Below are positions 2,158 to 19,774 of a stretch of 19,774 nt of DNA, piece after piece. The notes under the pieces are model-generated. The model saw nothing but the letters and a program-made list of their open reading frames with translations. It was not told the DNA's origin and ran no database searches. Where the stretch lies: UHGV virus genome UHGV-0311028; one strand, given 5' to 3'. Within the stretch, counting starts at the first letter, position 1; the number at the start of each line of letters is the position of its first letter. The position numbers were made by a program, and so were the translations under genes. Origin of the DNA: a virus.

Positions 2158-2170
2158 GCTCGTTCTCCAC

Positions 2171-3166: not shown

Positions 3167-3167
3167 C

Positions 3168-3965: not shown

Positions 3966-3984
3966 ACTTCGTTTCTCCTCTTAA

Positions 3985-4374
3985 TCAGGCGGCTGCACCC
4001 GCCGTTTTCTCGAACTTACTGATAGTGATCTCGACCTTCCCTTTCGGGATAACCGGTCCCCACTCAACCAGCATTCTTTTCACCTGACTGTCGTCTTCCC
4101 ACACACCCGCGTGGGTCAGGGCGTCAAACAGCGCCTTGTTATAGTTGTCCAGATCGCTGATCCGGTTATCCGGAGGAAACAACACGATCTCCACTGCAGA
4201 AGGTGTCGACATTGGTTTCGGCAGACGACGTAACTGCTCAACTATTGCTGCGCACGCCGCGCTCTGGAATTTTCGCCCCGCCGCGCTTATCAGGCTCTTA
4301 CCTGCAAACGCCCCTTTGTTGGGGTGTCGCCAGTACGTGTTCACGCTGGGCGGAAAAGGCAGGATCAGCTTCAT
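3985..4374 (-). CDS. rusA: RusA-family Holliday junction resolvase
   Basis: 129-aa product MKLILPFPPSVNTYWRH...DLDNYNKALFDALTHAGVWEDDSQV has the conserved RusA pattern (PPS-N-Y motif and acidic catalytic residues). ATGA overlap with the upstream gene. Confidence 0.7.
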   Translation of the reverse strand: MKLILPFPPSVNTYWRHPNKGAFAGKSLISAAGRKFQSAACAAIVEQLRRLPKPMSTPSAVEIVLFPPDNRISDLDNYNKALFDALTHAGVWEDDSQVKRMLVEWGPVIPKGKVEITISKFEKTAGAAA

Positions 4375-4658
4375 GCTTTCAGGCCTCTCTCATGTAACCA
4401 GTGGGTTGCACGCAGCCTTGCGTTTTCCTCACCAGCAAGCAGTGAGCGGATAATCCCGACCGCCTCGCTGTCGTCGTCCTTCACCGCGGTATGAAGCGTT
4501 ATCCCCCGGGCCACGCCACGCTTTATCGTGATGACACCTTTTTTCTCCAGTGCGCGAAGATGCTCCACCGCTGCATTCACTGAACGGTATCCCAGCATGG
4601 TTGCCACCTCCTGATTGGTTGGCGGGAAACCACGTTCTTTCTGATAAGAAATCAGCAT
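4371..4658 (-). CDS. LexA-like winged-HTH DNA-binding protein lacking a peptidase domain; start ATG 4658 preferred over GTG 4667
   Basis: Product ...ISYQKERGFPPTNQEVATMLGYRSVNAAVEHLRALEKKGVITIKRGVARGITL aligns to the LexA N-terminal DNA-binding domain (...[36 protein letters not shown]...) from memory. No S24 domain follows. Confidence 0.5.
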   Translation of the reverse strand: MLISYQKERGFPPTNQEVATMLGYRSVNAAVEHLRALEKKGVITIKRGVARGITLHTAVKDDDSEAVGIIRSLLAGEENARLRATHWLHERGLKA

Positions 4659-4693
4659 ATCCAGCACCTGCTACTGGCATTGAGTTAACGTCG

Positions 4694-5347
4694 TCATGCC
4701 GCCATCTCCCTGACCAGTTTTTCTGCCTGCTGGCGAACCTGCGCCAGAAAGGCCTCACCACATGCCTCAAGTTCATCGCGCCCGATGTAGCTGATTGCCG
4801 CTCCCTTCCAGGTCTTGTCGAAAACAGCAATAGCACCAGCGAAGAAAGCGCCTGTCGGCACCTGCTTCTCGTCTTTCGGGATAAACCAGGCAGGCAGTTC
4901 AAAACCAATACGCCCGCGAATAAAAGCAATATGATCTGCATCTTCCGGCCACCACACTTCGCTGGTGGCAGCTTTGATCAGGAAAACATAGCGACCGCCT
5001 TTATCACGCATGGAACTGGCATGCTTCATTATGTAACGCATGCCAGTGATGTATTGCCCCTCATGCTGACTGGCGCGGCTGTATGGGGGATTACCAAAGG
5101 CAGCACCTTTAAGCTCCGCAAGACGTTCTGACCAGTCATGCGCCAGCGCATTGTCTTCCGCCGTGTAATACGCGGCACATTTGGCGTTATCACCGTCGGT
5201 GAACAGATCCAGAACAAACGGGCCAAACAGGGTGTTAATTCCCCAGAAAATGTTGTCCGGCGTGCGCCACTGATCGCCCACTTCCTTCAGTTCATGGGCT
5301 GGTTTGTTCCGCAGTTCCACCAGCGCCTGGCAATATTTATTACTCAT
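4694..5347 (-). CDS. Phage DNA N6-adenine methyltransferase (Dam-like)
   Basis: Contains the NPPY catalytic motif (AAFGNPPYSRA), typical of phage Dam N6-adenine methyltransferases. ATG at 5347-5345 with SD GTGGGGG, overlapping the upstream stop (TAATG). The ORF-track GTG start at 5380 is less likely. Confidence 0.65.
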   Translation of the reverse strand: MSNKYCQALVELRNKPAHELKEVGDQWRTPDNIFWGINTLFGPFVLDLFTDGDNAKCAAYYTAEDNALAHDWSERLAELKGAAFGNPPYSRASQHEGQYITGMRYIMKHASSMRDKGGRYVFLIKAATSEVWWPEDADHIAFIRGRIGFELPAWFIPKDEKQVPTGAFFAGAIAVFDKTWKGAAISYIGRDELEACGEAFLAQVRQQAEKLVREMAA

Positions 5348-5835
5348 TAAGCCCCCACGTAATTCCCTGACAGATACCACTCTTCACCCGATGCAGCGCG
5401 CTTGCTGCTTTTCCGTAAGCACCGCTCACGACGCGCCAGAAAATTGTTTCGTTCTGGCTGGGAGTGGCTTTCACGGAATGCCGCCATCCACACCGTTGCA
5501 GCACGACGGTATAAGCCCCTGGACTCCAGTTCTTCCGCCTGGCGGGTCAGGCACAAAATCTCCCGCGGGTCGTTAGTGCCGACATAGAAATTGCGCACAG
5601 GTCTGGTTTCACGAACTGGTTGCGGTTCCGCCTCCTGCGCTCTCTCAGTCAGACGCGGGAAATGTCTGCGTGTATCCCCTTCACAACGGTGAGCCACACG
5701 ACCACTCTGACGTAACTTGCTTGCTGACTGCAGAACGCGCTGCCGTGAGTAACCTGCAAAAGCATCCGCAATGTCTCCGGAAGTACACCCCGGATGGGCT
5801 TCAATGTATTTCTGAACTTCATTCAAAAGACTCAT
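5347..5835 (-). CDS. Putative transcriptional regulator (winged-helix N-terminus; PerC/ANR-like C-terminal motif); functional assignment tentative
   Basis: Translationally coupled to the replication initiator (GGGGGTGATCATG). C-terminal YRRAATVWMAAF...ERNNF...RRERC resembles PerC/ANR-type regulators as I recall them. It is not a recognisable helicase loader. Confidence 0.35.
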   Translation of the reverse strand: MSLLNEVQKYIEAHPGCTSGDIADAFAGYSRQRVLQSASKLRQSGRVAHRCEGDTRRHFPRLTERAQEAEPQPVRETRPVRNFYVGTNDPREILCLTRQAEELESRGLYRRAATVWMAAFRESHSQPERNNFLARRERCLRKSSKRAASGEEWYLSGNYVGA

Positions 5836-5837
5836 GA

Positions 5838-6779
5838 TCACCCCCTGAATCCTGCCGGGATCTGGCTGTAGTCCACGTTGTCGTAACTGGCTTTGAAGTA
5901 CGGGTCTTCGCGTTTTTCGGTGTACGTGCTGACGGACGGCGATAAGCGCAGGGAAAGCTCATCCCATTTTTCCCGCAGCTTCGACGGGCTGAGCACGTTA
6001 CGGCACCAGAACGGATCGCGGCTGACGCGGCTGTACATCTCGCAGATTTGTTTGTGAGTACGACCATCCTGCACACACATCAGGCGAATTTCGTTTGCCC
6101 AGGCTGTCCAGTTCGGTTCTTTGGGACGAACCACCTCGCCGTCACATTCGGCGGCTTGCTCGTACAGGGCGATGATTTTTTTCCAGAGCCACTGTGCGCA
6201 GGTCAAATCATCCTGCGTCCCCCACTGGCGCTTTTTAGGGCTGAATACAACCGCATCAGGATGGCGAGTTAAAAAATCCTGTTCAGCCTTCTGCGTGTCC
6301 GGTTGCGAAGCGTCCGGACGAGAAGTTTTTTTATCTGACGGATCATGTTTTGATTTTACTGACGGATCCCCGCCAGATTCTGACGGGTGAAAACCCGCTT
6401 TTTTGACAGATTTCGACGCATCAAATTTTGACGGGTCAGATTTTGATGCGTCAGATTTTGACGGGTCAGAATCTGACAGTTGAGAAAAAGCCGCAGCCTG
6501 AAGCTTCGCAACGTTAAGCTGATAAACATTCGACGCATTGCGGTTACCCTGGCGACGCGCCTTACGCGTTAACCAGCCTTCTGCTTCCAGCCGTGCGATA
6601 GCCGTTCTGACGGTACTCATCCCCGCGCCAATCTGGCGGGCAATGGTTTCAATTGATGGCCAGCACACACCTTCGTCATTACTGAAATCAGCCAGGCGTG
6701 CCATAATTGCCACGCTGGATAATTTCATGCCTGACGCTGCGCAACCATCCCATACATAGCCGGTTAATTTAGTGCTCAT
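5838..6779 (-). CDS. Replication initiator (O-like) with N-terminal winged-HTH; ori iterons embedded in the coding sequence
   Basis: N-terminal HTH (LSSVAIMARLADFSNDEGVCWPSIETIARQIGAGMSTVRTAIARLEAEGWL). The central region encodes the 5-aa periodic peptide DPSKSDASKSDPSKFDASKS from tandem 15-bp DNA repeats. SD AGAGGT before the ATG at 6779. Lies downstream of cro/CII-like genes as in the lambdoid cro-cII-O order. Confidence 0.6.
   Translation of the reverse strand: MSTKLTGYVWDGCAASGMKLSSVAIMARLADFSNDEGVCWPSIETIARQIGAGMSTVRTAIARLEAEGWLTRKARRQGNRNASNVYQLNVAKLQAAAFSQLSDSDPSKSDASKSDPSKFDASKSVKKAGFHPSESGGDPSVKSKHDPSDKKTSRPDASQPDTQKAEQDFLTRHPDAVVFSPKKRQWGTQDDLTCAQWLWKKIIALYEQAAECDGEVVRPKEPNWTAWANEIRLMCVQDGRTHKQICEMYSRVSRDPFWCRNVLSPSKLREKWDELSLRLSPSVSTYTEKREDPYFKASYDNVDYSQIPAGFRG
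6396..6485. repeat. Tandem 15-bp iterons (TTTTGACGGGTCAGA-type) = putative ori; further TCTGACGG motifs at 6335-6390; AT-rich stretch at about 6300-6330
   Basis: Read directly: 6426-6440 TTTTGACGGGTCAGA, 6441-6455 TTTTGATGCGTCAGA, 6456-6470 TTTTGACGGGTCAGA, with degenerate copies on both sides. Each unit contains an imperfect palindrome TGAC-GGG-TCA. Confidence 0.6.
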
Positions 6780-6788
6780 GACCGACCT

Positions 6789-7127
6789 CTATTTCCCTGA
6801 ATTTACGACGAAACTGTTCGAGCGGACTGAAGCATTCATGCTCATAGCCTTCGCGGAGGTAGATAACCCGTTGTGTTTCCGGCTCCCAACGAATGACTCT
6901 GACGGGTACTCCGTAGTGATCTTTGAACCAGCGGTTAACTTGTCGCAAAGGACTGTCTCCTTTTGCCGGTTAAAATCACCCACAGCCCACTCTGCAAAGC
7001 TGTGGGTTACAATTACCCTGCCACCTGGTACATTTACTGCATAGCAATACTCCACCTTCGCTTTTCCACCCGGTACAGGAAGCGCAATCAGTTGCGAGCG
7101 ACGGTAGTGTGTTGTTAAACTGTTCAT
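6789..7127 (-). CDS. Hypothetical protein (between the CII-like gene and the replication initiator)
   Basis: The ATG at 7127-7125 overlaps the stop of the upstream gene (ATGA coupling). Same strand as the whole operon. The competing plus-strand ORF 6772-7044 has no such support. Confidence 0.4.
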
Positions 7128-7693
7128 GCGTTAGTTTCTCCACAACCAGAAGCAATCGACGCCACGACGCCCGGAGCTGCACACTCGCGGGCGTCATTAC
7201 TTTCTGAAATGCAAAAAATTTTGTAGACAAGTGCTGCATGCTCCTGCAGCTTCGAAATTGAGAGATACAGCTCGTCGTTAATTGCTGTCTTCTCATGCGG
7301 TTCCACTACACCGTCTTCGATTGCTGAACGAATCTGTTTTGAATAACTGCCGATCTGTTCAATGACTTCCAGCAGACGCTGGTTAATATCGGCGTTGTCC
7401 ACATCCTCGACGTCAGGAAGAGACACAAAGACGCCATTTGCAGACTGCGCCACAGCATCAGCAATGAAGTGAGTGCCACCAGCACGCTGTAAAACCATTG
7501 CCCATCCCAGCGGGAAAATCTGATCGCCATCTGCACGAAGGCGGTTGAATAAAGCGTTTTCTGTTACATCGAGCCAGTCAGCCGCTTCAGCGTAACCACC
7601 CGGCAACGCCGCGATAGTTTTTCTGACAGCTTTCACGTACCACTCAGGCTGTTTTTCTATTTTCCAGTGATGCTTACCCACGATTAGCCTCAT
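7124..7693 (-). CDS. CII-like phage regulatory protein (CP76/YdaT family), tentative
   Basis: Segment [39 protein letters not shown] resembles the conserved core of phage 186 CII-type (CP76) regulators as recalled. Located immediately downstream of cro. Confidence 0.4.
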
Positions 7694-7724
7694 CGTTCTG
7701 TGGTTAAAAATTGAAAGTGTTCTG

Positions 7725-7925
7725 CTAATCTTTCGGATAGATATCCGGTCTTAAGTCAGATTTCGTAATTGCACCTGACGTGCATTGCTCAAGTTTTTTA
7801 GCCAGCACAAAACTGGCTTTTTTATAGCCATTGAAAACCAGCCGTAAGTAGCCAGGTGTTGAGCCAACTTTTCCGGCCAACTCGCCCTGCTGTTCTTTGG
7901 TTAAAGAGTCCCAATACGCTTTCAT
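7725..7925 (-). CDS. cro: Cro-like HTH repressor
   Basis: 66-aa product MKAYWDSLTKEQQGELAGKVGSTPGYLRLVFNGYKKASFVLAKKLEQCTSGAITKSDLRPDIYPKD with HTH character. Divergent from the CI gene across a 90-bp operator region. SD GGAGGT before the ATG at 7925-7923. The longer ORF to 8228 would run through the operators and the cI start. Confidence 0.6.
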   Translation of the reverse strand: MKAYWDSLTKEQQGELAGKVGSTPGYLRLVFNGYKKASFVLAKKLEQCTSGAITKSDLRPDIYPKD

Positions 7926-7930
7926 ACAAT

Positions 7931-8000
7931 ATGTACCTCCGATGTACATATTACATGATTGAAATGAACCTTCAAGATACTTGTACCTTAACGGTACAAG
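7931..8000. promoter_or_regulatory. Immunity operator/promoter region (oR-like) with two palindromic operator candidates sharing a TGTAC core
   Basis: 7931-7949 ATGTACCTCCGATGTACAT (8 of 9 symmetric positions) and 7980-8000 CTTGTACCTTAACGGTACAAG (9 of 10 symmetric). TTTAAT lies 7 nt before the cI ATG, suggesting a near-leaderless cI transcript as in lambda pRM. Confidence 0.5.
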
Positions 8001-8015
8001 GGTTTTAATTTCGTT

Positions 8016-8690
8016 ATGAAAACAATCCATGACATCCGGCGGTCTAACGCCAGAAAACTGAGAGATGGTGTTGGCGGGAATTCTTCCTTTGCCACTATGA
8101 TTGATCGCGAGCCAACCCAGACCAGCAGGTTTATGGGAGATGGTGCTACTAAAAATATCGGTGACAGCATGGCACGACACATCGAAAAATGTTTCGACCT
8201 GCCTGTCGGATGGCTCGATCAAGAACACCAGACAACGAACATCACAAAAAAACCTGATGTTTCAATCACTAATAAACAAATCACATTAGTCCCTGTCATA
8301 TCATGGGTACAGGCCGGAGCATGGAAAGAAGTTGGATATTCTGAGGTTGATTTGAGCACAGCAGAAACGTATCCCTGCCCTGTCCCCTGTGGGGAAATGA
8401 CTTATATCTTGCGGGTGATAGGTGATTCAATGATTGATGAGTACCGCCCGGGAGACATGATTTTTGTCGATCCTGAAGTACCTGCCTGCCACGGTGACGA
8501 CGTTATTGCATTGATGCACGATACAGGTGAAACCACCTTCAAAAGGTTGATAGAAGATGGGACACAGCGTTATCTCAAAGCGTTAAACCCAAACTGGCCT
8601 GAGCCTTACATTAAGATCAACGGTAATTGCTCTATAATTGGTACAGTGATTTTCTCAGGAAAACCAAGAAGATACAAAATCAAAGCCTAA
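8016..8690 (+). CDS. cI: CI-type prophage repressor with N-terminal HTH and C-terminal S24 (LexA-like) autopeptidase domain
   Basis: C-terminal RVIGDSMIDEYRPGDMIFVD...TFKRLIEDG carries the S24 Ser (GDSM) and Lys (KR) pattern. Divergent from cro. Followed by an intrinsic terminator. Confidence 0.85.
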   Translation: MKTIHDIRRSNARKLRDGVGGNSSFATMIDREPTQTSRFMGDGATKNIGDSMARHIEKCFDLPVGWLDQEHQTTNITKKPDVSITNKQITLVPVISWVQAGAWKEVGYSEVDLSTAETYPCPVPCGEMTYILRVIGDSMIDEYRPGDMIFVDPEVPACHGDDVIALMHDTGETTFKRLIEDGTQRYLKALNPNWPEPYIKINGNCSIIGTVIFSGKPRRYKIKA

Positions 8691-8702
8691 TCAATGTTTA
8701 TG

Positions 8703-8727
8703 AACCTGCTTCGGCAGGTTTTTTTAT
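8703..8727 (+). terminator. Rho-independent terminator after cI
   Basis: AACCTGC-TTCG-GCAGGTT hairpin followed by TTTTTTT. Confidence 0.65.
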
Positions 8728-8729
8728 AC

Positions 8730-8757
8730 TTGACAATGTACCTTTGAGATACATAAT
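8730..8757 (+). promoter_or_regulatory. Candidate rightward promoter (pL-like): TTGACA, 16-bp spacer, CATAAT, with a TGTACC operator-like motif in the spacer
   Basis: Read directly from the sequence. Position is immediately after the cI terminator, and the spacer motif matches the oR half-sites. Confidence 0.35.
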
Positions 8758-9179
8758 GTATCCAAGAGAAACAACAAACAGGCAGGACGTCCACGAAGTA
8801 GCCGCCTGGGGCATATGAAGTCCAAGATGATTCGTTAGCAACAAAACGCCCATAGGACGCTTCGCTCTTTAACAATTTGAATATTTTCAGCGTCAATGAT
8901 CTGTTTAGCTCCCTACAAGTAAATGTAGCGTAGCACCATGATAAATCCTGCTAGTGTTTAGTTAAAAATCGCGCGAGAGCAAGAACGACGTGAGGGCAGG
9001 CAATATTGATAGTGTTATTGCTATTAGTTTATCAAAAATATTTAGACGACCCAGATGAATATTTTTAATACATACTCCCCCTAATTTAACAGGAGTAAAT
9101 GTTGATGAATAACGAGACATCTATACTCAACAATTGTATGATATGAACAATTATATAACATAATGTAGGAAAAATAAAA

Positions 9180-9776
9180 ATGGATTGGCATGACCTTATA
9201 TCAAAGGTAATTATCGGACTTGTTACAGGCTCAATCGCAGCTTACTTAACTGCGCGATATGCACTCGGCCGTTATTATAAAGAAAAATGGTGGGACAAAA
9301 GAATAGATTTGTATACGCAATTAGTTGACTGTGTTTATCTTCTAAAAAACACAGCTGACTATTGGTATAAACATGAGTTACATCACGCTTCACAATTCCC
9401 AACCTACTTTAGTTACAAATCAAAAGAAGAAAATGAAATCCTTAGCAAATCTTTCTCTAATGAGCTTGAAAAACTCAGTAGAATAGGTGAGCTATCTTCA
9501 TTATTCTTAACAGAAGAGTGTGGGGATAAAATCCGTTCATTCATTGAAAATGAAGAAAATCTATTTATACAATGGGAGTTTGATAGTATAGAGTTGATAG
9601 ATGCCCACAAGTCAAGACTTGATAAATTAAAAGTATTACTAGACGATATTATCTCTGAAGCAAAGAGAGAGCTTAAGGTCAATAAAAAACATAACAGCCT
9701 AAAGAATATAAAGTGGTCCATAACTATGCCAGACCAAAAAAATGATGAGCCAATTAATTATTACGACAATCATTAA
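9180..9776 (+). CDS. Hypothetical membrane-anchored protein (AT-rich moron downstream of cI); possible superinfection-exclusion/abortive-infection function
   Basis: 198 aa with one N-terminal hydrophobic helix (VIIGLVTGSIAAYLTARYAL) and a charged, probably helical remainder. SD AGGA 8 nt before the ATG. Has its own terminator at 9787-9808. Strongly AT-rich. Confidence 0.6.
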   Translation: MDWHDLISKVIIGLVTGSIAAYLTARYALGRYYKEKWWDKRIDLYTQLVDCVYLLKNTADYWYKHELHHASQFPTYFSYKSKEENEILSKSFSNELEKLSRIGELSSLFLTEECGDKIRSFIENEENLFIQWEFDSIELIDAHKSRLDKLKVLLDDIISEAKRELKVNKKHNSLKNIKWSITMPDQKNDEPINYYDNH

Positions 9777-9786
9777 AACACTTTAG

Positions 9787-9808
9787 AACCCGCTGGGCGG
9801 GTTTTATT
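9787..9808 (+). terminator. Rho-independent terminator after the cI-proximal moron
   Basis: AACCCGC-TGG-GCGGGTT hairpin followed by TTTTATT. Confidence 0.6.
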
Positions 9809-10198
9809 CAAATATACTTTGCACATCACAAATAAAACTATAACGTCCTTCTTCTTTTCCTAATATCTTATATCTACTTATTTATAAGCGGCTTACAGAT
9901 CTTCAACAGATAAACCTAATGAAGGCGACAATGTTCTGATGAATAGCCACCTTTTTACTCAACTGAAAGCGCGTTCTGTCCCTTGTCATTAAGTGCCAGT
10001 TCGTTAAGTCCAAAACCTCCGGAACGCGCTTTCAATTGAGTGGGGAAAATAACTGGCGATGGCAGCCGCCCGTTGCACTAAGTGCCTCTGGATGGGGCAT
10101 TTACTGAAACGAAACCAAAACTTTTAATCGCCTTATGGCGAGGGATTCGTGCAACCAAAAATCGTGCGGTGCAGCGCACCAATTAAGGAGAACTAACG

Positions 10199-10735
10199 AT
10201 GAGTTTTATCCAGACTCTTACCGGTAAGAAGTTCAATTATATCAACTCCACCATTGACGATATTTATATCGAGGATATCGCCGGTGCGCTTTCAAATATC
10301 TGCCGCTTCGCGGGACACTTGCCGGATTTTTACAGCGTGGCGCAGCATTCCGTTCTGTGCAGTCAACTTGTGGCGCCAGAGTTCGCCTTTGAAGCGTTAA
10401 TGCATGATGCAACAGAAGCGTATTGTCAGGACATCCCCGCGCAACTGAAACGCCTTCTTCCTGACTATAAACGGATGGAAGAAAAAATAGACGCCGTAAT
10501 CCGTGAGAAATACGGGTTACCCCCGGTTATGAGCACGCCCGTGAAATATGCCGATCTCATCATGCTGGCAACCGAACGCCGCGATCTCGGGCTTGATGAT
10601 GGCTCTTTCTGGCCTCTACTGGAAGGTATCCCAGCAACAGAGATGTTCAAAGTTATTCCACTGTCGCCAGGCCATGCCTACGGGATGTTTATGGAACGTT
10701 TTAACGAGTTATCGGAGTTACGCAAATGCGCATGA
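10199..10735 (+). CDS. HD-domain phosphohydrolase (prophage early-left gene)
   Basis: H...HD...D arrangement (AQHSVLCSQL, ALMHDATEAY, DLIMLATERRDLG). SD AAGGAG. First gene after a roughly 400-bp leader. Confidence 0.55.
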   Translation: MSFIQTLTGKKFNYINSTIDDIYIEDIAGALSNICRFAGHLPDFYSVAQHSVLCSQLVAPEFAFEALMHDATEAYCQDIPAQLKRLLPDYKRMEEKIDAVIREKYGLPPVMSTPVKYADLIMLATERRDLGLDDGSFWPLLEGIPATEMFKVIPLSPGHAYGMFMERFNELSELRKCA

Positions 10736-11088
10736 ATGTTTTCGAAATGGAAGGGTTTCTTCGCGGGAAATGTGTACCGCGAGATCTGAAAGTGAATGAA
10801 ACGGATGCTGAATACCTGGTGCGTAAATTCGATGCGCTTGAAGCTAAATGTGCGGCACTGGAAAACAAAGTAATACCAGTGTCAACTGAACTGCCACCAG
10901 CAAATGAAAGTGTTTTGTTATTCGATGCTAACGGAGAAGGCTGGCTAATTGGCTGGCGTTCTCTCTGGTACACCTGGGGACAAAAAGAAACCGGAGACTG
11001 GCAGTGGACATTTCAGGTCGGGGACCTTGAAAACGTCAATATCACTCACTGGGCAGTAATGCCAAAAGCACCGGAGGCTGGAGCATAA
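10726..11088 (+). CDS. Hypothetical protein (possible DUF551-like C-terminus)
   Basis: ORF with SD GGAG, overlapping the upstream stop by 10 nt. W-rich C-terminus (GWLIGWRSLWYTWGQKETGDWQWTF). Confidence 0.45.
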   Translation: MRMNVFEMEGFLRGKCVPRDLKVNETDAEYLVRKFDALEAKCAALENKVIPVSTELPPANESVLLFDANGEGWLIGWRSLWYTWGQKETGDWQWTFQVGDLENVNITHWAVMPKAPEAGA

Positions 11089-11393
11089 TGACCACTTTTA
11101 CCGACAAAGAACTGATTAAAGAAATCAAAGAGCGTATCAGCAGCCTTGACGTGCGAGACGATATTGAGCGCCGTGCTTATGAAATCGCACTCCTATCTCT
11201 GGAAGTAGAGCCAGATGAACGCGAATCCTATGAATTATTTATGGAAAAACGTTTCGGTGGCTTAGTAGATAGTCGGAGAGCAAAAAACGGCGATAACGAA
11301 TACATGGCATGGGATATGACTCTCGGTTGGATCGTCTGGCAACAACGAGCTGGCATTCATTTTTCAACAATATCACAGCAAGAGGTGAAATAA
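11088..11393 (+). CDS. Hypothetical protein
   Basis: TAATG overlap with the upstream gene; SD GGAGG. No recognised motif. Confidence 0.45.
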   Translation: MTTFTDKELIKEIKERISSLDVRDDIERRAYEIALLSLEVEPDERESYELFMEKRFGGLVDSRRAKNGDNEYMAWDMTLGWIVWQQRAGIHFSTISQQEVK

Positions 11394-11743
11394 TGGAACC
11401 ATACAGCCTCACGCTAGATGAGGCCTGTCATTTTCTCAAGATATCCAGACCGACTGCCATTAACTGGATACGCACAGGGCGTCTGCAGGCAACACGCAAA
11501 GATCCCACTAAGAATAAATCTCCTTACCTCACAACACGACAAGCCTGCATTGCGGCGCTTCAGTCTCCGCTGCATACTGTCCAGGTGAGCGCGGGTGATG
11601 GCATAACAGAGGAAAGAAAATGTCACTCTTCCGCAGAGGTGAAATATGGTACGCCAGTTTCACATTGCCGAACGGTAAAAGATTTAAACAGTCTCTTGGA
11701 ACAAAGGACAAAAGGCAGGCGACAGAACTCCATGACAAGCTAA
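11393..11743 (+). CDS. xis: Excisionase (Xis, HTH_17/AlpA-like); 3' end overlaps int and may be shorter than the ORF
   Basis: [37 protein letters not shown] is a typical excisionase/AlpA-type HTH. ATG at 11393 with SD AGAGGTGA and TAATG coupling. Directly upstream of int. Confidence 0.6.
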
Positions 11744-12783
11744 AGGCTGAAGCATGGCGGGTCAGCAAACTTGGTGAAATTCCTGATATAACGTTCGAGG
11801 AAGCGTGTGTCAGGTGGCTTGAAGAGAAAGCACATAAAAAATCACTGGACGATGACAAAAGCCGGATCGGATTCTGGCTTCAACATTTCGCAGGAATGCA
11901 ACTAAGAGACATTACTGAATCAAAAATTTATTCAGCAATGCAGAAAATGACGAACCGGCGTCATGAGGAAAACTGGAAACTCAGGGCAGAAGCATGCAGA
12001 AAAAAAGGGAAACCTGTTCCAGAATACACGCCAAAACCAGCGTCCGTTGCAACGAAGGCTACGCATCTTTCATTTATAAAGGCCCTGCTAAGAGCCGCAG
12101 AGCGTGAATGGAAAATGCTGGATAAGGCACCAATTATTAAAGTGCCTCAACCAAAGAATAAACGGATCCGCTGGCTGGAGCCTCATGAAGCACAAAGGCT
12201 GATTGATGAATGTCCGGAGCCATTAAAGTCTGTTGTTGAATTTGCACTTGCAACAGGCTTAAGACGCTCGAACATCATCAACCTTGAATGGCAACAAATA
12301 GACATGCAGCGCCGGGTGGCATGGATAAACCCGGAAGAGAGTAAATCAAACCGCGCAATTGGCGTTGCGCTGAATGATACTGCATGTCGCGTATTGAAAA
12401 AACAAATCGGGAATCATCACCGTTGGGTATTTGTGTATAAGGAAAGCTGTACCAAACCAGACGGAACGAAAGCGCCAACAGTCAGGAAGATGCGGTATGA
12501 CGCAAACACAGCCTGGAAAGCGGCGCTGAGACGAGCAGGTATTGATGATTTCAGATTTCACGACTTGAGACACACCTGGGCAAGTTGGCTGGTTCAAGCC
12601 GGAGTCCCGTTATCAGTGTTACAGGAAATGGGAGGCTGGGAGTCTATCGAAATGGTTCGTCGATATGCTCACCTCGCACCTAATCACCTTACCGAACACG
12701 CACGGCAAATAGACTCGATTCTGAACCCATCGGTCCCAAATTTGTCCCAGTCAAGAAATAAGGAAGGTACTAATGATGTGTAA
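11620..12783 (+). CDS. int: Tyrosine integrase, P22 Int / DLP12 IntD family
   Basis: 387 aa. N-terminus [34 protein letters not shown] and C-terminal catalytic region [39 protein letters not shown] (R...H-x-x-R...Y) match P22-type integrases from memory. SD AGAGGAAAG. Ends 15 bp from the tRNA-derived att core. Confidence 0.9.
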
Positions 12784-12797
12784 CTTATTGATTTAAA

Positions 12798-12843
12798 TGG
12801 TGCCGATAATAGGAGTCGAACCTACGACCTTCGCATTACGAAT
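12798..12843 (-). other. Attachment-site core: 46 nt identical to the 3' end of a tRNA-Thr(CGU) gene (thrW-type), anticodon loop to CCA; not an intact tRNA
   Basis: The reverse complement reads ATTCGTAATGCGAAGGTCGTAGGTTCGACTCCTATTATCGGCACCA: anticodon CGT, T-arm GGTTCGACTCC, acceptor 3' strand and CCA. The 5' half of the tRNA is absent (the sequence continues tataagaatcc...). Confidence 0.8.
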
Positions 12844-12908
12844 TATAAGAATCCGCTTCTAATTCAAAGCATTACCCCATCAACACTGCGCTCACACGTC
12901 CCACCACA

Positions 12909-13043
12909 TCAAAACATGTAAAGCCTTGCAAGCCATTGTGAGGCCTTATGTGTCTCAGTTTTGTCCCACCTTGTATTACGACTTGCATAGCCAATGAAGA
13001 TCAACGTGACGACAAACGGCGCAGCAGTCTTCTTTTCCTTCAT
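12909..13043 (-). CDS. Possible small ORF (44 aa, hydrophobic core), below the ORF-track cutoff; speculative
   Basis: ATG at 13043-13041 preceded by a purine-rich tract GGGGAAGGGGAAGGGAAAGT. Product MKEKKTAAPFVVTLIFIGYASRNTRWDKTETHKASQWLARLYMF. No homology recognised. Confidence 0.2.
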   Translation of the reverse strand: MKEKKTAAPFVVTLIFIGYASRNTRWDKTETHKASQWLARLYMF

Positions 13044-13233
13044 ACTTTCCCTTCCCCTTCCCCACCATGCATACTTTTCTGCCATAACTAAAGTGAATGC
13101 CTGTTATAAGCAATAAACAGGCATTAGCGCCGCTAGCATATTAGCTACCATTCGACTGCCACACTTAAGATTGATTTCTTAAGTATAACCCGGTTTCTAA
13201 TACTACTTATATATTCAGCTCTGAGATTCATTT

Positions 13234-16200
13234 TTATCTCGTAAAATTAGTTTTATGACTTCCTGTTAGCTGACTGTCTTCATAATAAAATGCCCCACTA
13301 AACTCCTGTCGACCATAATGATGACTTGATGTGAGTGAGCCCCCTATAACATCTTTTTCACCTAATAATGTCCAAACGATTTCAAAACCATTTTCCCTTA
13401 ACATTGTTAAAAATGGTTCTTTTTTAACAAGTAGATACGGCTTTGAAGCATATACAGCTTCAGCTGCAAAGCAAACCATAGTTCCATTTTCATCATTGAA
13501 GCTACCCTCTACTTCCCCATTTTTTAAGCCCATCTTTTCAAAGATTAAGTTGCTAGGCTTCAAAAAATTCAAAGCTTCTATTTTTGATTTGTCGAACTCC
13601 TCTCCCCACAAATAATTAATCGAAGTGACACTAACATCAGCTATCTTAGCTCCAGACTCCCGGTCTGTTACCGAAGTCCAGTCAGAACCAGCATAATAAT
13701 CTGATTTAAAAGACTTAAATGCTTCGGACCAATAGTACTCCCTATTAAATAATTGGTATCTATCAGTACCTTCCGGCATCCACCTGCCCATAAAGTCTTG
13801 AGCTATTGCCCAACATCTAAAATTTTCAAATTCTTCAACTTTAACGATATAACTTCTGATCTGATACCAAACCTCTTTTCGTGGGTGCCCCCAATCATCG
13901 TTTCCAATAATTTTTGGTTCTTTCCATGATGGATAACTTTCTAATACTATCCATTCATCACCATTATCATCTTTAACTTCAATCAAAGCATATGGATTAG
14001 TTATAGTAGTAGAGCTTTGAACCCAGTCTTCATTAGAGCAAGTCCAATCAAACACTTCATCATTAAACCACCACATTTCTTTATTGCTTATTTTTTTCGT
14101 CCCAGTTTCTTTAAGTAAGATAGTGGGATCTATATCTCTTACGTAAGGCTCCCATGGCCCTTGGTATGGGTTTTCCTTTCGGTCGTCACCATAACCTTCA
14201 AAATGAATAAAATTATCGGCTAGCCTTGCCATGTATTCATAATAAGCAATCCATTGGTATTTTTTACCAATCCGTTCTTGGAATTCCTCTCTACGTCCAC
14301 GTCCAGTTCCTATTTGTTGGTCAAAATCACCATGCTTCTCCGGATCCCAACCAAGATCCAGAACACGATTGAATATAAATTGTTGAGCTAGTCGAAGATC
14401 AAAGTGTTTATCAGTTTCCAGCAGATTATTATTATGATCTAGGTATGGCTCTATTTCATTTTCAAACTCACTTAACAGATCGTATGACAATGAATTCTTA
14501 AATAGCTTCTTGCTCGCCTTTATTTCTTCCTGTGTTTTTCTACCGACCACGCTACCCAATTTAATACCTTCACATTTATCATCATAAATGAAAGGATCTG
14601 TGGCATCATATAAATCTTTTTGTTGATCAGTTAGTTTACATTTGAAAGTTTTAAAAACTCGCTTACGGTCAACAGGGGTTTCATTAAACTTGCAACCAGA
14701 CCAATCAGAATGATTATAATTTGTTCCAATAGTATATCGTGAAAAGTCACCACCTTCCATAATCGAGCTCCAGAGTTCCCGATAAGGTTCTTTATCATAA
14801 AGGGACTCTAGTTCCTCTTTTGAAGGAATCTTGTCAGGCCAAATGCTGTTGTAGGGTGGTCTAGTCTTGGATAATTCAATGCTTTCAAGTTCCAATCCAA
14901 GATGATTAGCAAATTCAATAATCTCTCTAGCATAATCTCTAAGTAATATATTTGGATACACATACTCAGAACAAAATACCTTTTGGTAAACAGTTTCGGC
15001 TAAATATTTTAGTTCTTTAATATTATCAGTTCGCAATGTACAACCCAATGCAACTGCAAATATTCTTTCCCAAACGTAAGGATCATTTACACCATAAAAC
15101 TTATCAATTATTTTTCTCAATACAGGAATTCTTGGCTCGAGTAAACTCACTAAAGCCTTGGTTGAGCAATCTCGAAGTTCTCGGTTACTAGAAGTTAAAA
15201 ACCAGCATAAACTAGTTGCAACTAGCTCGATTGACTCATCCGAAACGAAGCTTTTATCTGTTCTGCCCCATGCCCAATCGATTAGATGCCTAAATGCTGA
15301 GTCTTCACTATATTTATATTTAAGTTTTGTAGTCCAACACGAATCTCGATTTCCCAAAGAGTAATCTTTTAGCCAATCATGCAAAAAATTAGCATTAAAG
15401 GGATGGTCAACTAAACCTGAAATAGAGATCACTGCCTCGAGAAAATGATCAAAACTACCTTTAAATTTAAAAACATGTTCATTGATGAAAGGTCTGATTT
15501 TTTCGAAATCAATAGCCTTAATATCTCGCCATATCAAGCTATCAATAAAGGCTTCTAGTAATTTATGATTATTGCTGAACTCCGGCAGAAATTCATAAAG
15601 CTCTTTTCCATACTTTTCTGGCAATTGAATAGAAAGCGCCTCAACTATTCCCGAGTTTGTATAAAAATCACATTCATCATGAAAATATTTTTTCAGACAA
15701 CCATCTGACTTAAATTCATTTTCGATATTTTCAACATCATTTAATAAAAAATTAACAGTTAAATGATCATCAAACCTTTCAAAAGCCACATGAACTACTT
15801 CCTCAGTAGCATTATCATTATTTCTCACTATGCCTTTAGTCAATAATCCTTCGTCAATCAAGGCGCTGAGGAAATTTTTATCTGTAACATAATCATTAAC
15901 TACAGATTGAACCACTGAGTGAGCATCTCTAAGTGAAATACTATTACTACCAATCTCTAATTTGAATTTTATGATTTCGTTGAGAGCATCTTTTACAAGA
16001 GGAAAACTGGGATCGAAATCATATTTTCTTGGCGATGCCAATGATTTATTCACCCCTTCCACTAAAAAGTTAAAAATATTTGAAATCCCATTAAACCCAA
16101 CAGGTACTTTGGTTAAACCATTTTTCTTAATGCCTTCACACAATAACTTAAGAAATAGAGGGTTTTTAAACTCTGGATTAAGATTCGGTGATGAAGGCCT

Positions 16201-17688
16201 CTCTATATTGTAATAATCATAAAATAGACTAACCGCTTCTAACTCAACATTCTGAAATCCAATATGTTCATGAATTTCAAAATTATTTCGCTCAACATTC
16301 TCATGTGAAATTGTTACATTTCTATATGTTGTTCTGACTGACATTATCAGACCAAGCCATTCAAAGCATCTGATTTCATCGACAAAACTGTTAATATTGT
16401 CATTCCAGAATTTATTTCCATTACCTTCATTAATAGCATCAATGAAAACCAAGACTCTTTTTCCTGTTTTTTTGCCATATAAATTCAGTTTTTCCAGGAA
16501 TTCACGAGAAGTGATTTTAAGCTGTAATCTCTTGAAGATCTGTGACCATGGAGATTCATCTGAAGTAAGTTGTTGCCCTAGTATGAGTAGAGAAGGATAT
16601 CCAGAAGCAATTCGATTTTTAATCACATCAGCCAGTAAATGAGACTTACCAATTCCAGCTTTTCCTTCGAGAAGTAAGAATGGGTTGTTAGCCAACTTTA
16701 CTGTTGTTGAATTAATGAATGTACGTAATTCATTGCACGCATAGTCAAGTTCCCGAAGCATTCGCAGAGTAGATGAATACTTATCACTGTAATGCTTGGT
16801 TTCACCTACTTGTTCTGACTTTTCTCGGAGTTCCCACAATATTGATTCCGCTCCGCCAATAGCTGTCTGGCAGCTGTCAACATAGTTATTAAATTTATTT
16901 ATAGGAATTTGATCTAATTTAGAAAAATTAAGCCCTTGATATATATCCGCAATTTGATTTAAGGACTCGTCTATTACAGATAATTCTGAGTAAATTACAT
17001 CGCAACTATGTAACCTCTTTCTAGTCATCAGAAAATTATCTATATGTGAGTAAAATATTTTAGCAAAATCATCAGTTCTACCGAGACCATCAAATATCTC
17101 TGCTATTTCTAGCTTTACGTTGAGTTCGGGTGTGTATCGGCCTCCCAAGTCAGCTATTGCTTGACTATTTTTTTCATTTAACCAATCATCACTCAAGTGA
17201 AAAGTTAGTTTCTCATCTATAGACCGCAAAATAAGTTTAACTTGAATAAGCTCTTCATTAATATCGAATATTTTTTCTTTATACGTTTCTTCGATATGTA
17301 GCTTTTTTAACTTCGAACAATTATTGATTTTTAACGATAACATCTCATAAAAAAGGCTGAGTTGTTGTTGAGTTGGGGGGGTGATGCTTGGATATTCTTT
17401 GAACTTGTCTAATAATATCCCTTTGTCAGGAAACTCTTTAAACAAGATGTGTTCATTCAACATCTCAAACAATGGTTCAGAATGATAAAATGGAATTGCT
17501 CCACTTTCTACTGGATATGTTTCTTCAAACTCAATTGCCGTCTCTTCAATTAGTTGATATAATCTATCCACATATCTTTTTTGGGGGAATAATGCTTTCT
17601 TAATACAACCATATCCTTCTTGAGAGATGAATTGATCAATAAGTTTAGTTGCTACATAAGTTGCCACTGTAATTGATATAAGTTCCAT
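13234..17688 (-). CDS. Large P-loop NTPase with NACHT/STAND-like motifs (1484 aa); candidate antiphage defence protein; N- and C-terminal domains unassigned
   Basis: Uninterrupted 4455-nt ORF. ATG at 17688-17686 with upstream GGAAGAAG. Walker A GKAGIGKS (aa 342-349, nt 16642-16665), Walker B-like VLVFIDAINE (aa 412-421) and a sensor-1-like LIMSVRTT (aa 447-454). Strongly AT-rich relative to int and pin. Plus-strand ORFs inside it are short shadows. Confidence 0.85.
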   Translation of the reverse strand: MELISITVATYVATKLIDQFISQEGYGCIKKALFPQKRYVDRLYQLIEETAIEFEETYPVESGAIPFYHSEPLFEMLNEHILFKEFPDKGILLDKFKEYPSITPPTQQQLSLFYEMLSLKINNCSKLKKLHIEETYKEKIFDINEELIQVKLILRSIDEKLTFHLSDDWLNEKNSQAIADLGGRYTPELNVKLEIAEIFDGLGRTDDFAKIFYSHIDNFLMTRKRLHSCDVIYSELSVIDESLNQIADIYQGLNFSKLDQIPINKFNNYVDSCQTAIGGAESILWELREKSEQVGETKHYSDKYSSTLRMLRELDYACNELRTFINSTTVKLANNPFLLLEGKAGIGKSHLLADVIKNRIASGYPSLLILGQQLTSDESPWSQIFKRLQLKITSREFLEKLNLYGKKTGKRVLVFIDAINEGNGNKFWNDNINSFVDEIRCFEWLGLIMSVRTTYRNVTISHENVERNNFEIHEHIGFQNVELEAVSLFYDYYNIERPSSPNLNPEFKNPLFLKLLCEGIKKNGLTKVPVGFNGISNIFNFLVEGVNKSLASPRKYDFDPSFPLVKDALNEIIKFKLEIGSNSISLRDAHSVVQSVVNDYVTDKNFLSALIDEGLLTKGIVRNNDNATEEVVHVAFERFDDHLTVNFLLNDVENIENEFKSDGCLKKYFHDECDFYTNSGIVEALSIQLPEKYGKELYEFLPEFSNNHKLLEAFIDSLIWRDIKAIDFEKIRPFINEHVFKFKGSFDHFLEAVISISGLVDHPFNANFLHDWLKDYSLGNRDSCWTTKLKYKYSEDSAFRHLIDWAWGRTDKSFVSDESIELVATSLCWFLTSSNRELRDCSTKALVSLLEPRIPVLRKIIDKFYGVNDPYVWERIFAVALGCTLRTDNIKELKYLAETVYQKVFCSEYVYPNILLRDYAREIIEFANHLGLELESIELSKTRPPYNSIWPDKIPSKEELESLYDKEPYRELWSSIMEGGDFSRYTIGTNYNHSDWSGCKFNETPVDRKRVFKTFKCKLTDQQKDLYDATDPFIYDDKCEGIKLGSVVGRKTQEEIKASKKLFKNSLSYDLLSEFENEIEPYLDHNNNLLETDKHFDLRLAQQFIFNRVLDLGWDPEKHGDFDQQIGTGRGRREEFQERIGKKYQWIAYYEYMARLADNFIHFEGYGDDRKENPYQGPWEPYVRDIDPTILLKETGTKKISNKEMWWFNDEVFDWTCSNEDWVQSSTTITNPYALIEVKDDNGDEWIVLESYPSWKEPKIIGNDDWGHPRKEVWYQIRSYIVKVEEFENFRCWAIAQDFMGRWMPEGTDRYQLFNREYYWSEAFKSFKSDYYAGSDWTSVTDRESGAKIADVSVTSINYLWGEEFDKSKIEALNFLKPSNLIFEKMGLKNGEVEGSFNDENGTMVCFAAEAVYASKPYLLVKKEPFLTMLRENGFEIVWTLLGEKDVIGGSLTSSHHYGRQEFSGAFYYEDSQLTGSHKTNFTR

Positions 17689-18210
17689 GGTTAGCTTCTT
17701 CCAATAATTAAAATTTTACAAAGCGTTTATGCCTTACAATATGTATTGTATCTCACCGTAAAACATATTTATATGGTTTTAAACCTATCTGTAAATCTTG
17801 ACACCTTGGCAAGAACCTAATCCTACATTTTAATATCAGTCTATATAATATAGCCAGTGTCATAATAATCGGGCTTATCATAGTTAAGTATTCGCCTCCG
17901 ATATCCCAATGAGATAAGTAAGTCATCAGTGTTATAAATGAAAAGATCACATTTTTCAAAGAGTTATTATGATGGAATATTATTCAAAACGCAATGTAGC
18001 TGAAACGAGTCTGAGTTTAACATCCGCTCCTAGTACATAGTAGTCCCAGGGACAGTGGCGTAAAGTCATAGATGGCCGGTGGGAGGTGGTGGAAATCCTC
18101 TCATGCAAAAAATACATAAAATCGATAACGGCTGGAAATCATTCAATACTCGCACTATCGAAAGTTCACCAGCCAACCGCGCACGATCTTGCATACGACA
18201 TGCTACGGTT

Positions 18211-18765
18211 TCATTTATCTCCGACCGGAAACTTCTTATACAGTGTCGATATACCAACATCATAGATGATCGCCACCTTCTGGCGAGGAACGCCTGATGC
18301 AATTAATCGCCCGGCCTGCGCCCATTGTTCTGGTGTAAGTTTGGGACGACGTCCACCAATTCGTCCCTGTGCGCGAGCAGCTTCCAGTCCAGCTTTTGTT
18401 CGTTCAACAATCAGTTCTCGTTCCATTTCAGCCAAGGCCCCCATCACATGAAAGAAAAAACGCCCCATTGGTGTGCTGGTATCAATTGAATCCGTCAGAC
18501 TACGAAAGTTGATGCCTCGTTCGCGCAACTCCTCCACCAACACGACAAGATGCCGCATACTACGCCCCAGCCGATCCAGCTTCCAGACAACCAGAGTGTC
18601 ACCTGCCGATAATGTCCTGAGCAGTTTTTTCAGTCCCGGCCTTTCGGACTTTGTGCCGCTTATCTTGTCTTCAAAAATCAGCTCGCATCCTGCACAGTTC
18701 AGCGCATTACGTTGTAGATCTGTGTTCTGGTCATTTGTTGATACGCGTACATAGCCAATAAGCAT
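18211..18765 (-). CDS. pin: Serine DNA invertase, Pin/Gin/Hin/Cin family
   Basis: MLIGYVRVSTNDQNTDLQRNALN...DRLGRS... carries the resolvase/invertase catalytic serine motif (YVRVST) and a C-terminal HTH, and matches Pin of e14 from memory. SD GGGGGA before the ATG at 18765-18763. The ORF-track start at 18801 adds 12 unlikely residues. Confidence 0.9.
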   Translation of the reverse strand: MLIGYVRVSTNDQNTDLQRNALNCAGCELIFEDKISGTKSERPGLKKLLRTLSAGDTLVVWKLDRLGRSMRHLVVLVEELRERGINFRSLTDSIDTSTPMGRFFFHVMGALAEMERELIVERTKAGLEAARAQGRIGGRRPKLTPEQWAQAGRLIASGVPRQKVAIIYDVGISTLYKKFPVGDK

Positions 18766-18819
18766 GGTAGATCCCCCTGACAAAAGCAGGAATGATGCCA
18801 TTTGCTCGTTATTTCTGCA

Positions 18820-18845
18820 TTTTCATAAACGTTGGTTTGGGAGAA
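18820..18845. other. Candidate invertase crossover site (pix/gix-like), TTTTCATAAACGTTGGTTTGGGAGAA
   Basis: Imperfect dyad with AAAC / GGTTT half-sites resembling the gix/hix consensus (TTATCCAAAACC..GGTTT..GATAA) as recalled. Located between the pin 5' end and the start of the tail-fibre variable exon, as in Mu gixR. Confidence 0.45.
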
Positions 18846-19313
18846 GGCTCTGCATTACCTGTTGGTGTGCCTGTTCCATGGCCTTCAGCCACACCGCCAA
18901 CAGGCTGGCTGAAATGCAACGGTGCGGCTTTTTCTGCTGAAGAATACCCGGAACTGGCAAAGGCTTATCCGACAAATAAATTGCCTGATTTACGTGGTGA
19001 GTTTATTCGTGGCTGGGATGACGGGCGCGGTATTGATGCAGGACGTGTTTTATTGAGCATTCAGACAGGGATGCTGGAAAAACACCGCCATATTGTTGTT
19101 GCCAATGATGGTTACGACACAAAAGATGAATGGGAACTGGCTACGATTTTCAAAAAAACATACACACAAGGACGGGGACTTGATGCCACAAATACAGGAG
19201 GGAGTCTGATCCCATCACCGACACTTCATTCACGAGGGAGTATCGGTAATACTGGCGGGAGTGAAACCCGTCCACGAAATATTGCATTTAACTATATCGT
19301 GAGGGCTGCATAA
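18846..19313 (+). CDS. Tail-fibre protein C-terminal variable exon (alternative, currently pin-proximal and unlinked to a constant 5' part in this window)
   Basis: LPVGVPVPWPSATPPTGWLKCNGAAFSAEEYPELAKAYPTNKLPDLRGEFIRGWDDGRGIDAGR is the conserved C-terminal motif of Mu S / P2 H / e14 StfE-type tail fibres. No credible start of its own: the ORF-track start at 18792 lies upstream of the crossover site. Confidence 0.65.
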   Translation, partial: GSALPVGVPVPWPSATPPTGWLKCNGAAFSAEEYPELAKAYPTNKLPDLRGEFIRGWDDGRGIDAGRVLLSIQTGMLEKHRHIVVANDGYDTKDEWELATIFKKTYTQGRGLDATNTGGSLIPSPTLHSRGSIGNTGGSETRPRNIAFNYIVRAA

Positions 19314-19774
19314 TGGATAACGCCGTATTAAATAGCGAGCTTATTGCCACGAAGGCGGGGAATATTACCGTCTATAACTATGATGGTAAAACTCGGGAAT
19401 ATATTTCTACTTCAAATGAATATCTTGCCATTGGTGTCGGTATCCCTGCATATTCCTGTCTGGATGAACCTGGTATACATAAGGCGGGTTATGCTATCTG
19501 CCGTTCGATGGATTTAAACTCATGGGAATATGTGCCAGACCATCGCGGTGAAATCGTCTATAACACCGAAACGGGAGACGCCAAAGAAATCACAGCTCCG
19601 GGTGATTATCCTGAAAATACAACCACTATCGCCCCGTTAACGCCATTCGATAAATGGGATGGTAAGAAATGGGTGACCGATACTGAGGCACAGCATAGCG
19701 CCGCAGTAGACGCGGCAGAAGTACAGCGTCAGTCACTGATTAATACTGCAATGGCTTCCATTAGTCTGATTCAA
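19313..19774 (+). CDS. tfa: Tail-fibre assembly protein (Tfa/U'-type), 3'-partial (runs off the window end)
   Basis: ATG at 19313 overlaps the stop of the tail-fibre exon (TAATG). Product MDNAVLNSELIATKAGNITVYNYDGK...PDHRGEIVYNTETGDAKEITAPGDYPENTT...KWDGKKWVTDTEAQ... matches the Tfa family pattern (DHRG..VY, PEN.T, W.G..WV.DTEA). Not in the ORF track because no stop occurs in the window. Confidence 0.75.
   Translation, partial: MDNAVLNSELIATKAGNITVYNYDGKTREYISTSNEYLAIGVGIPAYSCLDEPGIHKAGYAICRSMDLNSWEYVPDHRGEIVYNTETGDAKEITAPGDYPENTTTIAPLTPFDKWDGKKWVTDTEAQHSAAVDAAEVQRQSLINTAMASISLIQ

Follow-up and report, generated by a model that had tools for sequence, protein, structure and literature searches.

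The question raised by this locus is whether the AT-rich DNA between the attachment (att) site and the pin-type invertase gene of a temperate phage is an exchangeable unit of cargo, and what that cargo is. The locus lies in a stretch of 19,774 nucleotides (nt) of viral DNA (UHGV virus genome UHGV-0311028), which was analysed at its full length and is referred to here as the window. An earlier sequence-only reading had described positions 12844-18210 as a self-contained inserted module of abruptly lower guanine-cytosine (GC) content, placed in an accessory-gene slot like the lambda b region.

The segment is, with high probability, the accessory slot of a temperate Escherichia coli (E. coli) phage, a counterpart of the lambda b region that is exchanged by recombination and carries the defence gene avs2 in this case. 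In the proposed model, the slot would lie between the phage arm of attP, at the tRNA gene thrW, and the tail-fibre invertase gene. It would hold a foreign AT-rich cassette of about 4.9 kilobases (kb) between two hairpin-ended anchors, one on the att side and one, element E, on the pin side, with avs2 as the one gene, provided with its own leader and 3' end. The cargo-slot interpretation as a whole was supported by the GC profile, the variable cargo of related phages, the likeness to lambda and the block-wise presence of the module in other genomes.

Composition and cargo of the slot

By exact counts, the GC content of 12844-18210 was 0.353, compared with 0.477 in 1-12843 and 0.476 in 18211-19774. 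The sliding-window check that had been proposed was run with 500-nt windows and revealed a discrete low-GC block, with values of 0.46-0.49 left of 12750, 0.31-0.38 at about 13000-17950 and 0.48-0.51 past 18000. A two-breakpoint likelihood fit was compared with a uniform model over the span 10000-19774. The log-likelihood rose by 86 units over that of a single composition, with the breaks at about 13160 and about 18020. The GC content of the block between them was 0.30-0.35 (0.345 for the avs2 gene and 0.30 for its leader), while the flanks had 0.47-0.48.

The drop is therefore real, sharp and far beyond chance, but its edges lie inside the coordinates 12844 and 18210 from which it had been thought to start and end. 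Just inside those coordinates the composition was near normal, with a GC content of about 0.45 at 12844-13150 and 0.47 at 17991-18210. The cargo cassette proper is about 13127-18020 (approximately 4.9 kb), not 12844-18210, and the outer parts, about 280 nt of attP arm and anchor on one side and about 190 nt of element E on the other, are conserved phage backbone. The hairpin, the small open reading frame (ORF), the large NTPase ORF and the 522-nt upstream region listed by the sequence-only reading were all found. The upstream region (17689-18210) was not the uniformly AT-rich leader it had been taken for; it is a composite of about 330 nt of AT-rich, cassette-specific DNA (17689-18020) and about 190 nt of backbone with normal GC content (18021-18210).

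Related loci were sampled in two ways: 80 viral-contig loci were found via pin and 44 via a 28-nt piece of the att arm. A common frame, consisting of att core, arm, anchor, variable interval, element E and either pin or a tail-fibre assembly gene, was present in 13 of the pin loci and in nearly all of the arm loci. Identities within this frame reached 97-100% for the arm (12844-12968), 82-93% for the anchor (12969 to about 13126) and 76-99% for the element at about 18021-18210. The interval between the anchors measured 1.5-6.6 kb, and the aligned loci lost homology no more than a few bases from the att-side hairpin at one end and from the point where the pin-side element starts at the other.

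At least 20 distinct cargo configurations were counted between the same anchors in 57 viral-contig loci. Avs2 was encoded in eight loci (including L123) in addition to the window. Other predicted cargo comprised a SIR2 protein of 936 amino acids (L127), Septu PtuA/PtuB together with PDC-S15 (L130), a type II methyltransferase and restriction enzyme with PD-T7-1 and PD-T4-3 (L099), and an AAA ATPase with ImmA, HTH and Bro-N genes (L107). Ppl (L194), a type IV methyl-directed restriction enzyme (L177, L178 and L182), a Ser/Thr kinase of the PD-T4-6 type (L169) and PIN, HNH-like and DUF4145 proteins (L104, L108 and L110) were also encountered. Various loci carried GtrA/GtrB-like proteins, recognised by sequence reading, a LysR regulator with an oxidoreductase, or insertion sequence fragments. 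Large proteins lacking a PADLOC match measured 1182 (L193), 893 (L201), 374, 331, 321, 311 and 303 amino acids. In phage SKA5, dinI lies between the integrase and the invertase.

Shigella phages SfII, SfIV and SfV match the window at 95-97% in the early region, the integrase, the thrW core and the P' arm up to position 12968, where homology stops. Their cargo is gtrA-gtrB-gtr(type), which serves O-antigen modification and not defence, and they lack the att-side anchor (12969-13126). The genes of SfIV beyond attP encode a flippase, a bactoprenol glucosyltransferase and a serotype-specific glucosyltransferase. The expectation that relatives with the same int, att arm and pin would carry different cargo in this slot was thus confirmed both by these gtr genes and by the gene sets of the 57 loci. 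The slot is a prophage accessory-gene hotspot, with unrelated contents of divergent composition between conserved flanks.

Att-proximal gtr genes in Shigella phages and mcrA in the e14 prophage are long established. The end of e14 consists of a pin invertase for tail-fibre switching, the single defence gene mcrA and the att site, and this arrangement agrees with the order of int, attP, cargo, invertase and tail fibre seen here. The e14 prophage integrates in icd, and McrA is a restriction enzyme for modified DNA, not Avs2.

Judged by order and homology, the slot is the positional and partly the sequence equivalent of the lambda b region, which contains ea47, ea31 and ea59 between tfa and attP. 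Both follow the order int, attP, cargo, element E, further cargo and tail-fibre genes. In lambda this layout reads int, attP, ea59 (AAA ATPase) and ea31 (HNH), E, ea47, tfa and stf. The analogy drawn by the sequence-only reading holds at the level of DNA as well, since element E is 86.7% identical to lambda 24169-24348, a segment in the same position between ea47 and ea31. Lambda differs in its attB, which lies between gal and bio rather than at thrW, and in its integrase, and an invertase gene borders the slot only in the window. The ea genes of lambda are read in the same direction as int, whereas avs2 is read in the opposite one.

The avs2 gene and its product

The 1484-codon ORF on the minus strand (13234-17688) is avs2 by every sequence criterion applied; its predicted product is an AVAST type 2 STAND NTPase, an allele of EcAvs2. 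The large NTPase ORF noted earlier was thus present, and it could be made specific as a known defence protein. PADLOC model PDLC02164 (Avs2) matched residues 22-1483 of 1484 with 1749 bits, and five more Avs2 models also matched. RefSeq names the same gene avs2, and positions 12700-18300 are covered to at least 80% in 87 of the 5426 complete E. coli genomes. The Avs2 of the window shared 99.7% identity with the allele of H1, a single intact prophage, 98.1% with that of H7, a circular phage genome, and about 94.8% with the EcAvs2-like alleles found here. A Walker A motif, GKAGIGKS, was located at residue 342, with K348 present, and the motif VLVFIDA at residue 412. Pfam yielded weak, sub-threshold P-loop/STAND, NACHT and NB-ARC matches at residues 324-427, and PHROGs contained no family for Avs2.

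EcAvs2 protects against diverse tailed phages, and its clone is active in E. coli (PMC13601566). In whole-genome screens of phages PhiV-1 and ZL19, the large terminase was its sole trigger; the ATPase domain of the terminase fits a pocket of the TPR and C-terminal sensor, along with a bridging ATP, and drives formation of a C4 tetramer (PMC13601566). The K348A substitution abolishes defence, and the N-terminal effector is uncharacterised and probably non-enzymatic (PMC13601566).

The window allele can be compared directly with EcAvs2 (AVAST type 2; PDB 9O4E, 'AVAST type 2 anti-phage system protein Avs2'; Gao et al. 2020, 2022; PMC13601566), as both have 1484 amino acids, a gap-free alignment over residues 1-1484 and the same type of effector. 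They share K348 and most of the residues that touch the terminase or the bridging ATP; D981, R1130, W1266, E1364, E1444 and E1462 are kept (residue list from PMC13601566). The two differ at about 5% of residues, concentrated in 161-330 and 1201-1484 and including E1362G.

Six distinct avs2 alleles were available, and the 4455-nt frame was intact in all of them. Ratios of nonsynonymous to synonymous differences were 3:10 for residues 1-160, 22:9 for 161-330, 17:24 for 331-700 and 14:6 for 1201-1484. The synonymous excess in the effector region (1-160) and in the ATPase region (331-700) therefore indicates purifying selection. The fast-changing regions (161-330 and 1201-1484) are the parts placed against the terminase in the published structure (PMC13601566).

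Downstream of the gene, the 3' untranslated region (13127-13233, minus strand) is cassette-specific and was present only in avs2 loci; the GC change-point at about 13160 falls within it. Upstream, the AT-rich leader (17689-18020, minus strand; GC content about 0.30) was 94-98% identical in company with avs2 and absent beside other cargo. The avs2 promoter is presumed to lie within this leader. Candidates from pattern matching are the best sigma-70-like matches on the minus strand, TTGAAA-17-TATAAC (17959-17931) and TTTACA-16-TATAAA (17795-17768).

According to the model, avs2 would be transcribed in the lysogen from a promoter in this leader, and the transcript would stop at the hairpin at 13097-13126. 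Its expression would protect the host, and hence the prophage, against other phages. As is known for EcAvs2, the ATPase domain of the large terminase of an invading tailed phage and a bridging ATP would bind the C-terminal sensor, the STAND ATPase would tetramerise, the N-terminal effector would be activated, and the infected cell would die before the invader matures. Homologous recombination within the shared anchors would be the most likely route by which the cargo is swapped.

A thrW prophage remnant in NZ_LR134231.1 (L003, 6001-12700) retains avs2, a fragment of a tail-fibre assembly gene, a truncated integrase and little else. This arrangement suggests that the defence gene was retained after decay of the phage.

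Attachment site, anchors and neighbouring genes

The left border of the locus is formed by a tyrosine integrase gene (11620-12783, plus strand; Pfam Phage_integrase, E 3e-48). Its product was 99-100% identical to that of about 80 thrW proviruses in IMG/VR, and its DNA about 96% identical to that of SfII, SfIV and SfV. The tRNA-derived core that had been said to end at 12843 proved exact: positions 12798-12843 (minus strand) reproduce the final 46 nt of tRNA-Thr (thrW) without a mismatch, which is the longest common match to the tRNA-Thr of the L003 locus. ARAGORN detected no whole tRNA gene in the window, only this 46-nt 3' fragment. In a three-way alignment of attP, attL and attR, common identity extended from about 12788 to 12843. 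The left side of the window matched the integrase end of prophages (attL) and the right side their far end (attR), and the junction is therefore attP.

The P' arm of attP (12844-12968) was 97-100% identical in all 44 viral loci holding it, regardless of cargo. A direct repeat, GTCYCAnnTTTGTCCCA (repeat family D10), occurs on either side of the core, at 12733-12749 (plus strand) and, within the P' arm, at 12952-12968; from their position alone, both copies are candidate arm-type integrase binding sites. The right copy stops exactly at the end of the Shigella-phage homology (12968). A pattern scan placed two overlapping terminator-like hairpins at 12923-12957 (plus strand), just downstream of int and att. 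By analogy with lambda tI/sib, they are a candidate int terminator.

Within prophages the module is found on the inner side of attR, flanked by pin and by the att core. The single intact prophage H1 has the order tRNA-Thr, int, early genes, terminase, HK97-type head, lambda-type tail, tail fibre, pinE, avs2, att core and the paoD side of the host. H7, a circular record of 44.8 kb, represents an entire phage genome whose tail is of the Mu type, and its int, att, avs2 and pinE are ordered as in the window. Since avs2 lies inside a single prophage and in a circular genome, the module belongs to the phage. Two sources would yield the sequence of the window equally well, a free or circular genome and the junction of two tandem prophages.

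In two contigs (L216, 13055-19464, and L217, 6428-12837), a P4-like satellite follows in tandem past the att core, and both contigs encode exactly this Avs2. The genes of the satellite encode an integrase, two reverse transcriptases, Psu and Ogr/Delta. It directly adjoins the att core that stands next to avs2, and thrW therefore holds a stack of two defence-carrying elements in these contigs.

The right border is the gene of a pin-type serine DNA invertase (18211-18801, minus strand; Pfam Resolvase and HTH_7; RefSeq pinE), beyond which an ORF with a tail-fibre Collar domain follows (18792-19313). In other genomes the module was conserved as a block, 12780-18208, adjoining either pin or a truncated tail-fibre assembly gene. 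Such block-wise presence agrees with the idea of a self-contained inserted module; the extent given for it was too wide, as the cassette covers only about 13127-18020.

The att-side anchor (12969-13126), found in 3567 of the 5426 complete E. coli genomes, stood beside unrelated cargo and ended in a hairpin at 13097-13126. This hairpin has a 10-base-pair stem and a U-rich tail, with CACUUUAGUU following on the minus strand, and in comparison with other variants its pairing is preserved by a double change from U-A to C-G. By its predicted structure it suits a terminator for leftward cargo transcripts. As a universal feature of the slot the hairpin was rejected, since many other variants show a weak or partial form and the avs2 cassette alone a strong one.

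A small ORF on the minus strand (12909-13085; 58 codons, or 44 from the second ATG), taken from the ORF list, straddles the att arm and the anchor and would encode a short hydrophobic peptide (MKEKKTAAPFVVTLIFIGYASRN...). RefSeq has it as a hypothetical protein of 50 amino acids in one genome, a premature stop cuts it short in some variants, and a diverged version occurs in L168-type loci. Neither PADLOC nor PHROG gave a match.

Element E, the pin-side anchor (18021-18210), comprises about 190 nt of non-coding DNA and, like the att-side anchor, was found beside unrelated cargo. Parts of it were present in 5394 of 5426 E. coli genomes, at a median of three places per genome. These fragments include a core-chromosome site between ecpE and ykgJ. 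The lambda copy (24169-24348) is equal to L215 4170-4349, and L212 4001-4087 is a further site. A protein-coding role for element E was rejected: the start codon is lost, and single-base insertions or deletions in an A-run shift the frame in several copies. Rfam, searched with the whole window and both slot borders, gave nothing at gathering thresholds; the only match, CssrB (E 0.25; 18 bits against a threshold of 76 bits), was at chance level and overlapped the pin-side end of E.

When E was analysed as a structured RNA with RNAalifold, covariation was confined to the terminal hairpin, and the overall covariation term was -0.78 kcal/mol. This GC-rich helix (18177-18208) ends E and lies 2 nt from the pin stop codon. 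Compensatory changes from C-G to U-A were observed in 4 of 14 sequences, and on the plus strand the hairpin is followed by TTTCATTT. In other loci the PD-T4-3 gene, read from the plus strand, stops a short way ahead of a copy of this hairpin, and in genomes without pin the homology of the module ends at 18208. The hairpin is likely to act as a two-way terminator, as judged from its sequence and neighbours.

In L107, L171, L200 and L210, stacked cargo units are set apart by whole or partial copies of E. The cassettes of an integron-like array would likewise be bounded by a repeated recombination site, on which a dedicated recombinase acts; for the copies of E no tie to a recombinase appeared, and homologous recombination of the ordinary kind is enough to account for them. 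The defence gene PD-T4-3 (GIY-YIG, 274 amino acids) is found repeatedly in a second sub-slot, with element E on one side and pin on the other (L169 3135-4346, L200 3124-4340 and L210 3317-4441, in att-arm orientation). It is flanked on both sides by E-hairpin copies of about 40 nt, approximately 85% alike. Recombination at the hairpin, or homing-endonuclease-like spread, could account for this sub-slot.

Two more low-GC islands (GC content 0.35) lie in the window at classic accessory positions. The island at 750-1500 contains an ORF of 111 amino acids (884-1219, minus strand; phrog_13663, function unknown) between the Q antiterminator and the holin, and that at 8750-10000 contains an ORF of 198 amino acids (9180-9776, plus strand; phrog_17948, function unknown) downstream of a cI-like repressor. 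Neither ORF had a Pfam or PADLOC match.

Alternative explanations and the question of self-tolerance

The sharp boundaries and the foreign composition of the cassette would also be expected of an autonomous mobile element, such as a transposon or small integrative element, that had inserted itself into the phage, and the two hairpin copies around PD-T4-3 in other loci could be read as a target duplication. This origin is very unlikely, however. No transposase or recombinase is encoded within 13127-18020, where avs2 is the only sizeable ORF, and a repeat search found neither terminal inverted repeats nor flanking direct repeats at the cassette ends. Those ends coincide with anchors common to many unrelated cargos, and the PD-T4-3 hairpin copies are too diverged for a fresh duplication. 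It is even harder to credit, and in our judgement extremely improbable, that the segment is chromosomal DNA or a separate island abutting att, so that the window would span the junction of two tandem elements at thrW. Tandem thrW elements are real: several genomes have a different integrase beyond the att core next to avs2, two contigs have the P4-like satellite there, and a tandem-prophage junction has the same sequence as attP. In single prophages, nevertheless, avs2 is an internal gene flanked by pin and the attR core, and what follows past that core is host DNA (the paoD side); in the 44.8-kb circular record it forms part of one complete phage genome. The arm at 12844-12968 is, moreover, phage-specific and common to free Shigella phage genomes.

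A different possibility accepts the slot and denies its function, with avs2 as a silent or decaying passenger, acquired by chance, repressed in the lysogen (for example by H-NS on the leader) and providing no defence. The very AT-rich leader and gene, the lack of a clear promoter, the cultured phage genomes without Avs2 and the substitution E1362G at a terminase contact residue are all in keeping with it. It is nonetheless unlikely, given the frame kept intact in every distinct allele, the purifying selection seen in residues 1-160 and 331-700, the activity of the EcAvs2 clone in E. coli, and a prophage remnant (H27) that kept avs2 after losing almost everything else.

The reading of the segment as an exchangeable accessory slot with a working defence gene has several points to answer. 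Promoter-like and terminator-like matches in the region were no commoner than in shuffled sequence in the pattern scan. At residue 1362 the window allele has a glycine in place of a terminase-contacting glutamate of EcAvs2, and the defence activity of this allele is assumed by analogy with EcAvs2. Exchange by recombination within the anchors, the most likely route, is read from the pattern of homology and not from a reconstructed event. Megablast and tblastn searches of 50,697 deposited phage genomes found no Avs2; the sole phage-genome match to the module was partial, at 31% identity, in a Staphylococcus phage record. A further difficulty arises from the sensor itself. EcAvs2 is toxic in combination with terminases so diverse that their mutual identity is below 10% (PMC13601566), and the carrier phages encode their own large terminase of 577 amino acids, so that a simple model leaves the tolerance of their own cargo unexplained.

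The facts fit an Avs2 that benefits the host and inconveniences the phage. Its absence from the 50,697 cultured phages, set against its presence in prophages of 87 of 5426 E. coli genomes, could mean that carriers pay a real cost. An escape variant of the terminase was sought in the carriers, and none was obvious: the large terminase of two avs2 carriers was 96-98% identical to that of SKA5, which has no avs2.

Two further proposals, taken jointly, are possible but rather doubtful. One is that the phage has a dedicated self-tolerance to Avs2, through timing or silencing, an inhibitor or an escaping terminase; such a trait would resemble the self-immunity element of BstA prophages. The other is that the hairpin-ended anchors, and element E in particular, form a dedicated boundary or exchange element for cargo, which is proposed because E recurs between stacked cargo units and occurs in nearly every E. 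coli genome.

Comparable hotspots have been described in P2 and P4, where fixed positions hold alternative defence systems between conserved flanking genes (Rousset et al. 2022, PMC9122126; Vassallo et al. 2022, bioRxiv 10.1101/2022.05.12.491691). They belong to another phage family and another position. The slot of the window differs from them in having non-coding, hairpin-ended anchors beside attP and in also holding cargo unrelated to defence, namely gtr genes, regulators and an oxidoreductase. Among the papers that could be searched, none describes this slot and its anchors as a defence hotspot.

The locus is clearly an example of known biology, a member of the known class of prophage accessory and defence hotspots, and not a new kind of system. 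With avs2 already known and annotated, its identity adds nothing new, and the value lies in a precise map of a slot for phage cargo. The two anchors of the slot can be used as search handles to retrieve every cargo variant, and the large slot proteins that lacked a match to known defence families, drawn from a small sample, are reasonable candidates for new defence genes. For the biology of these phages, the locus offers a natural system in which to ask how a temperate phage copes with carrying a sensor directed at terminases like its own.

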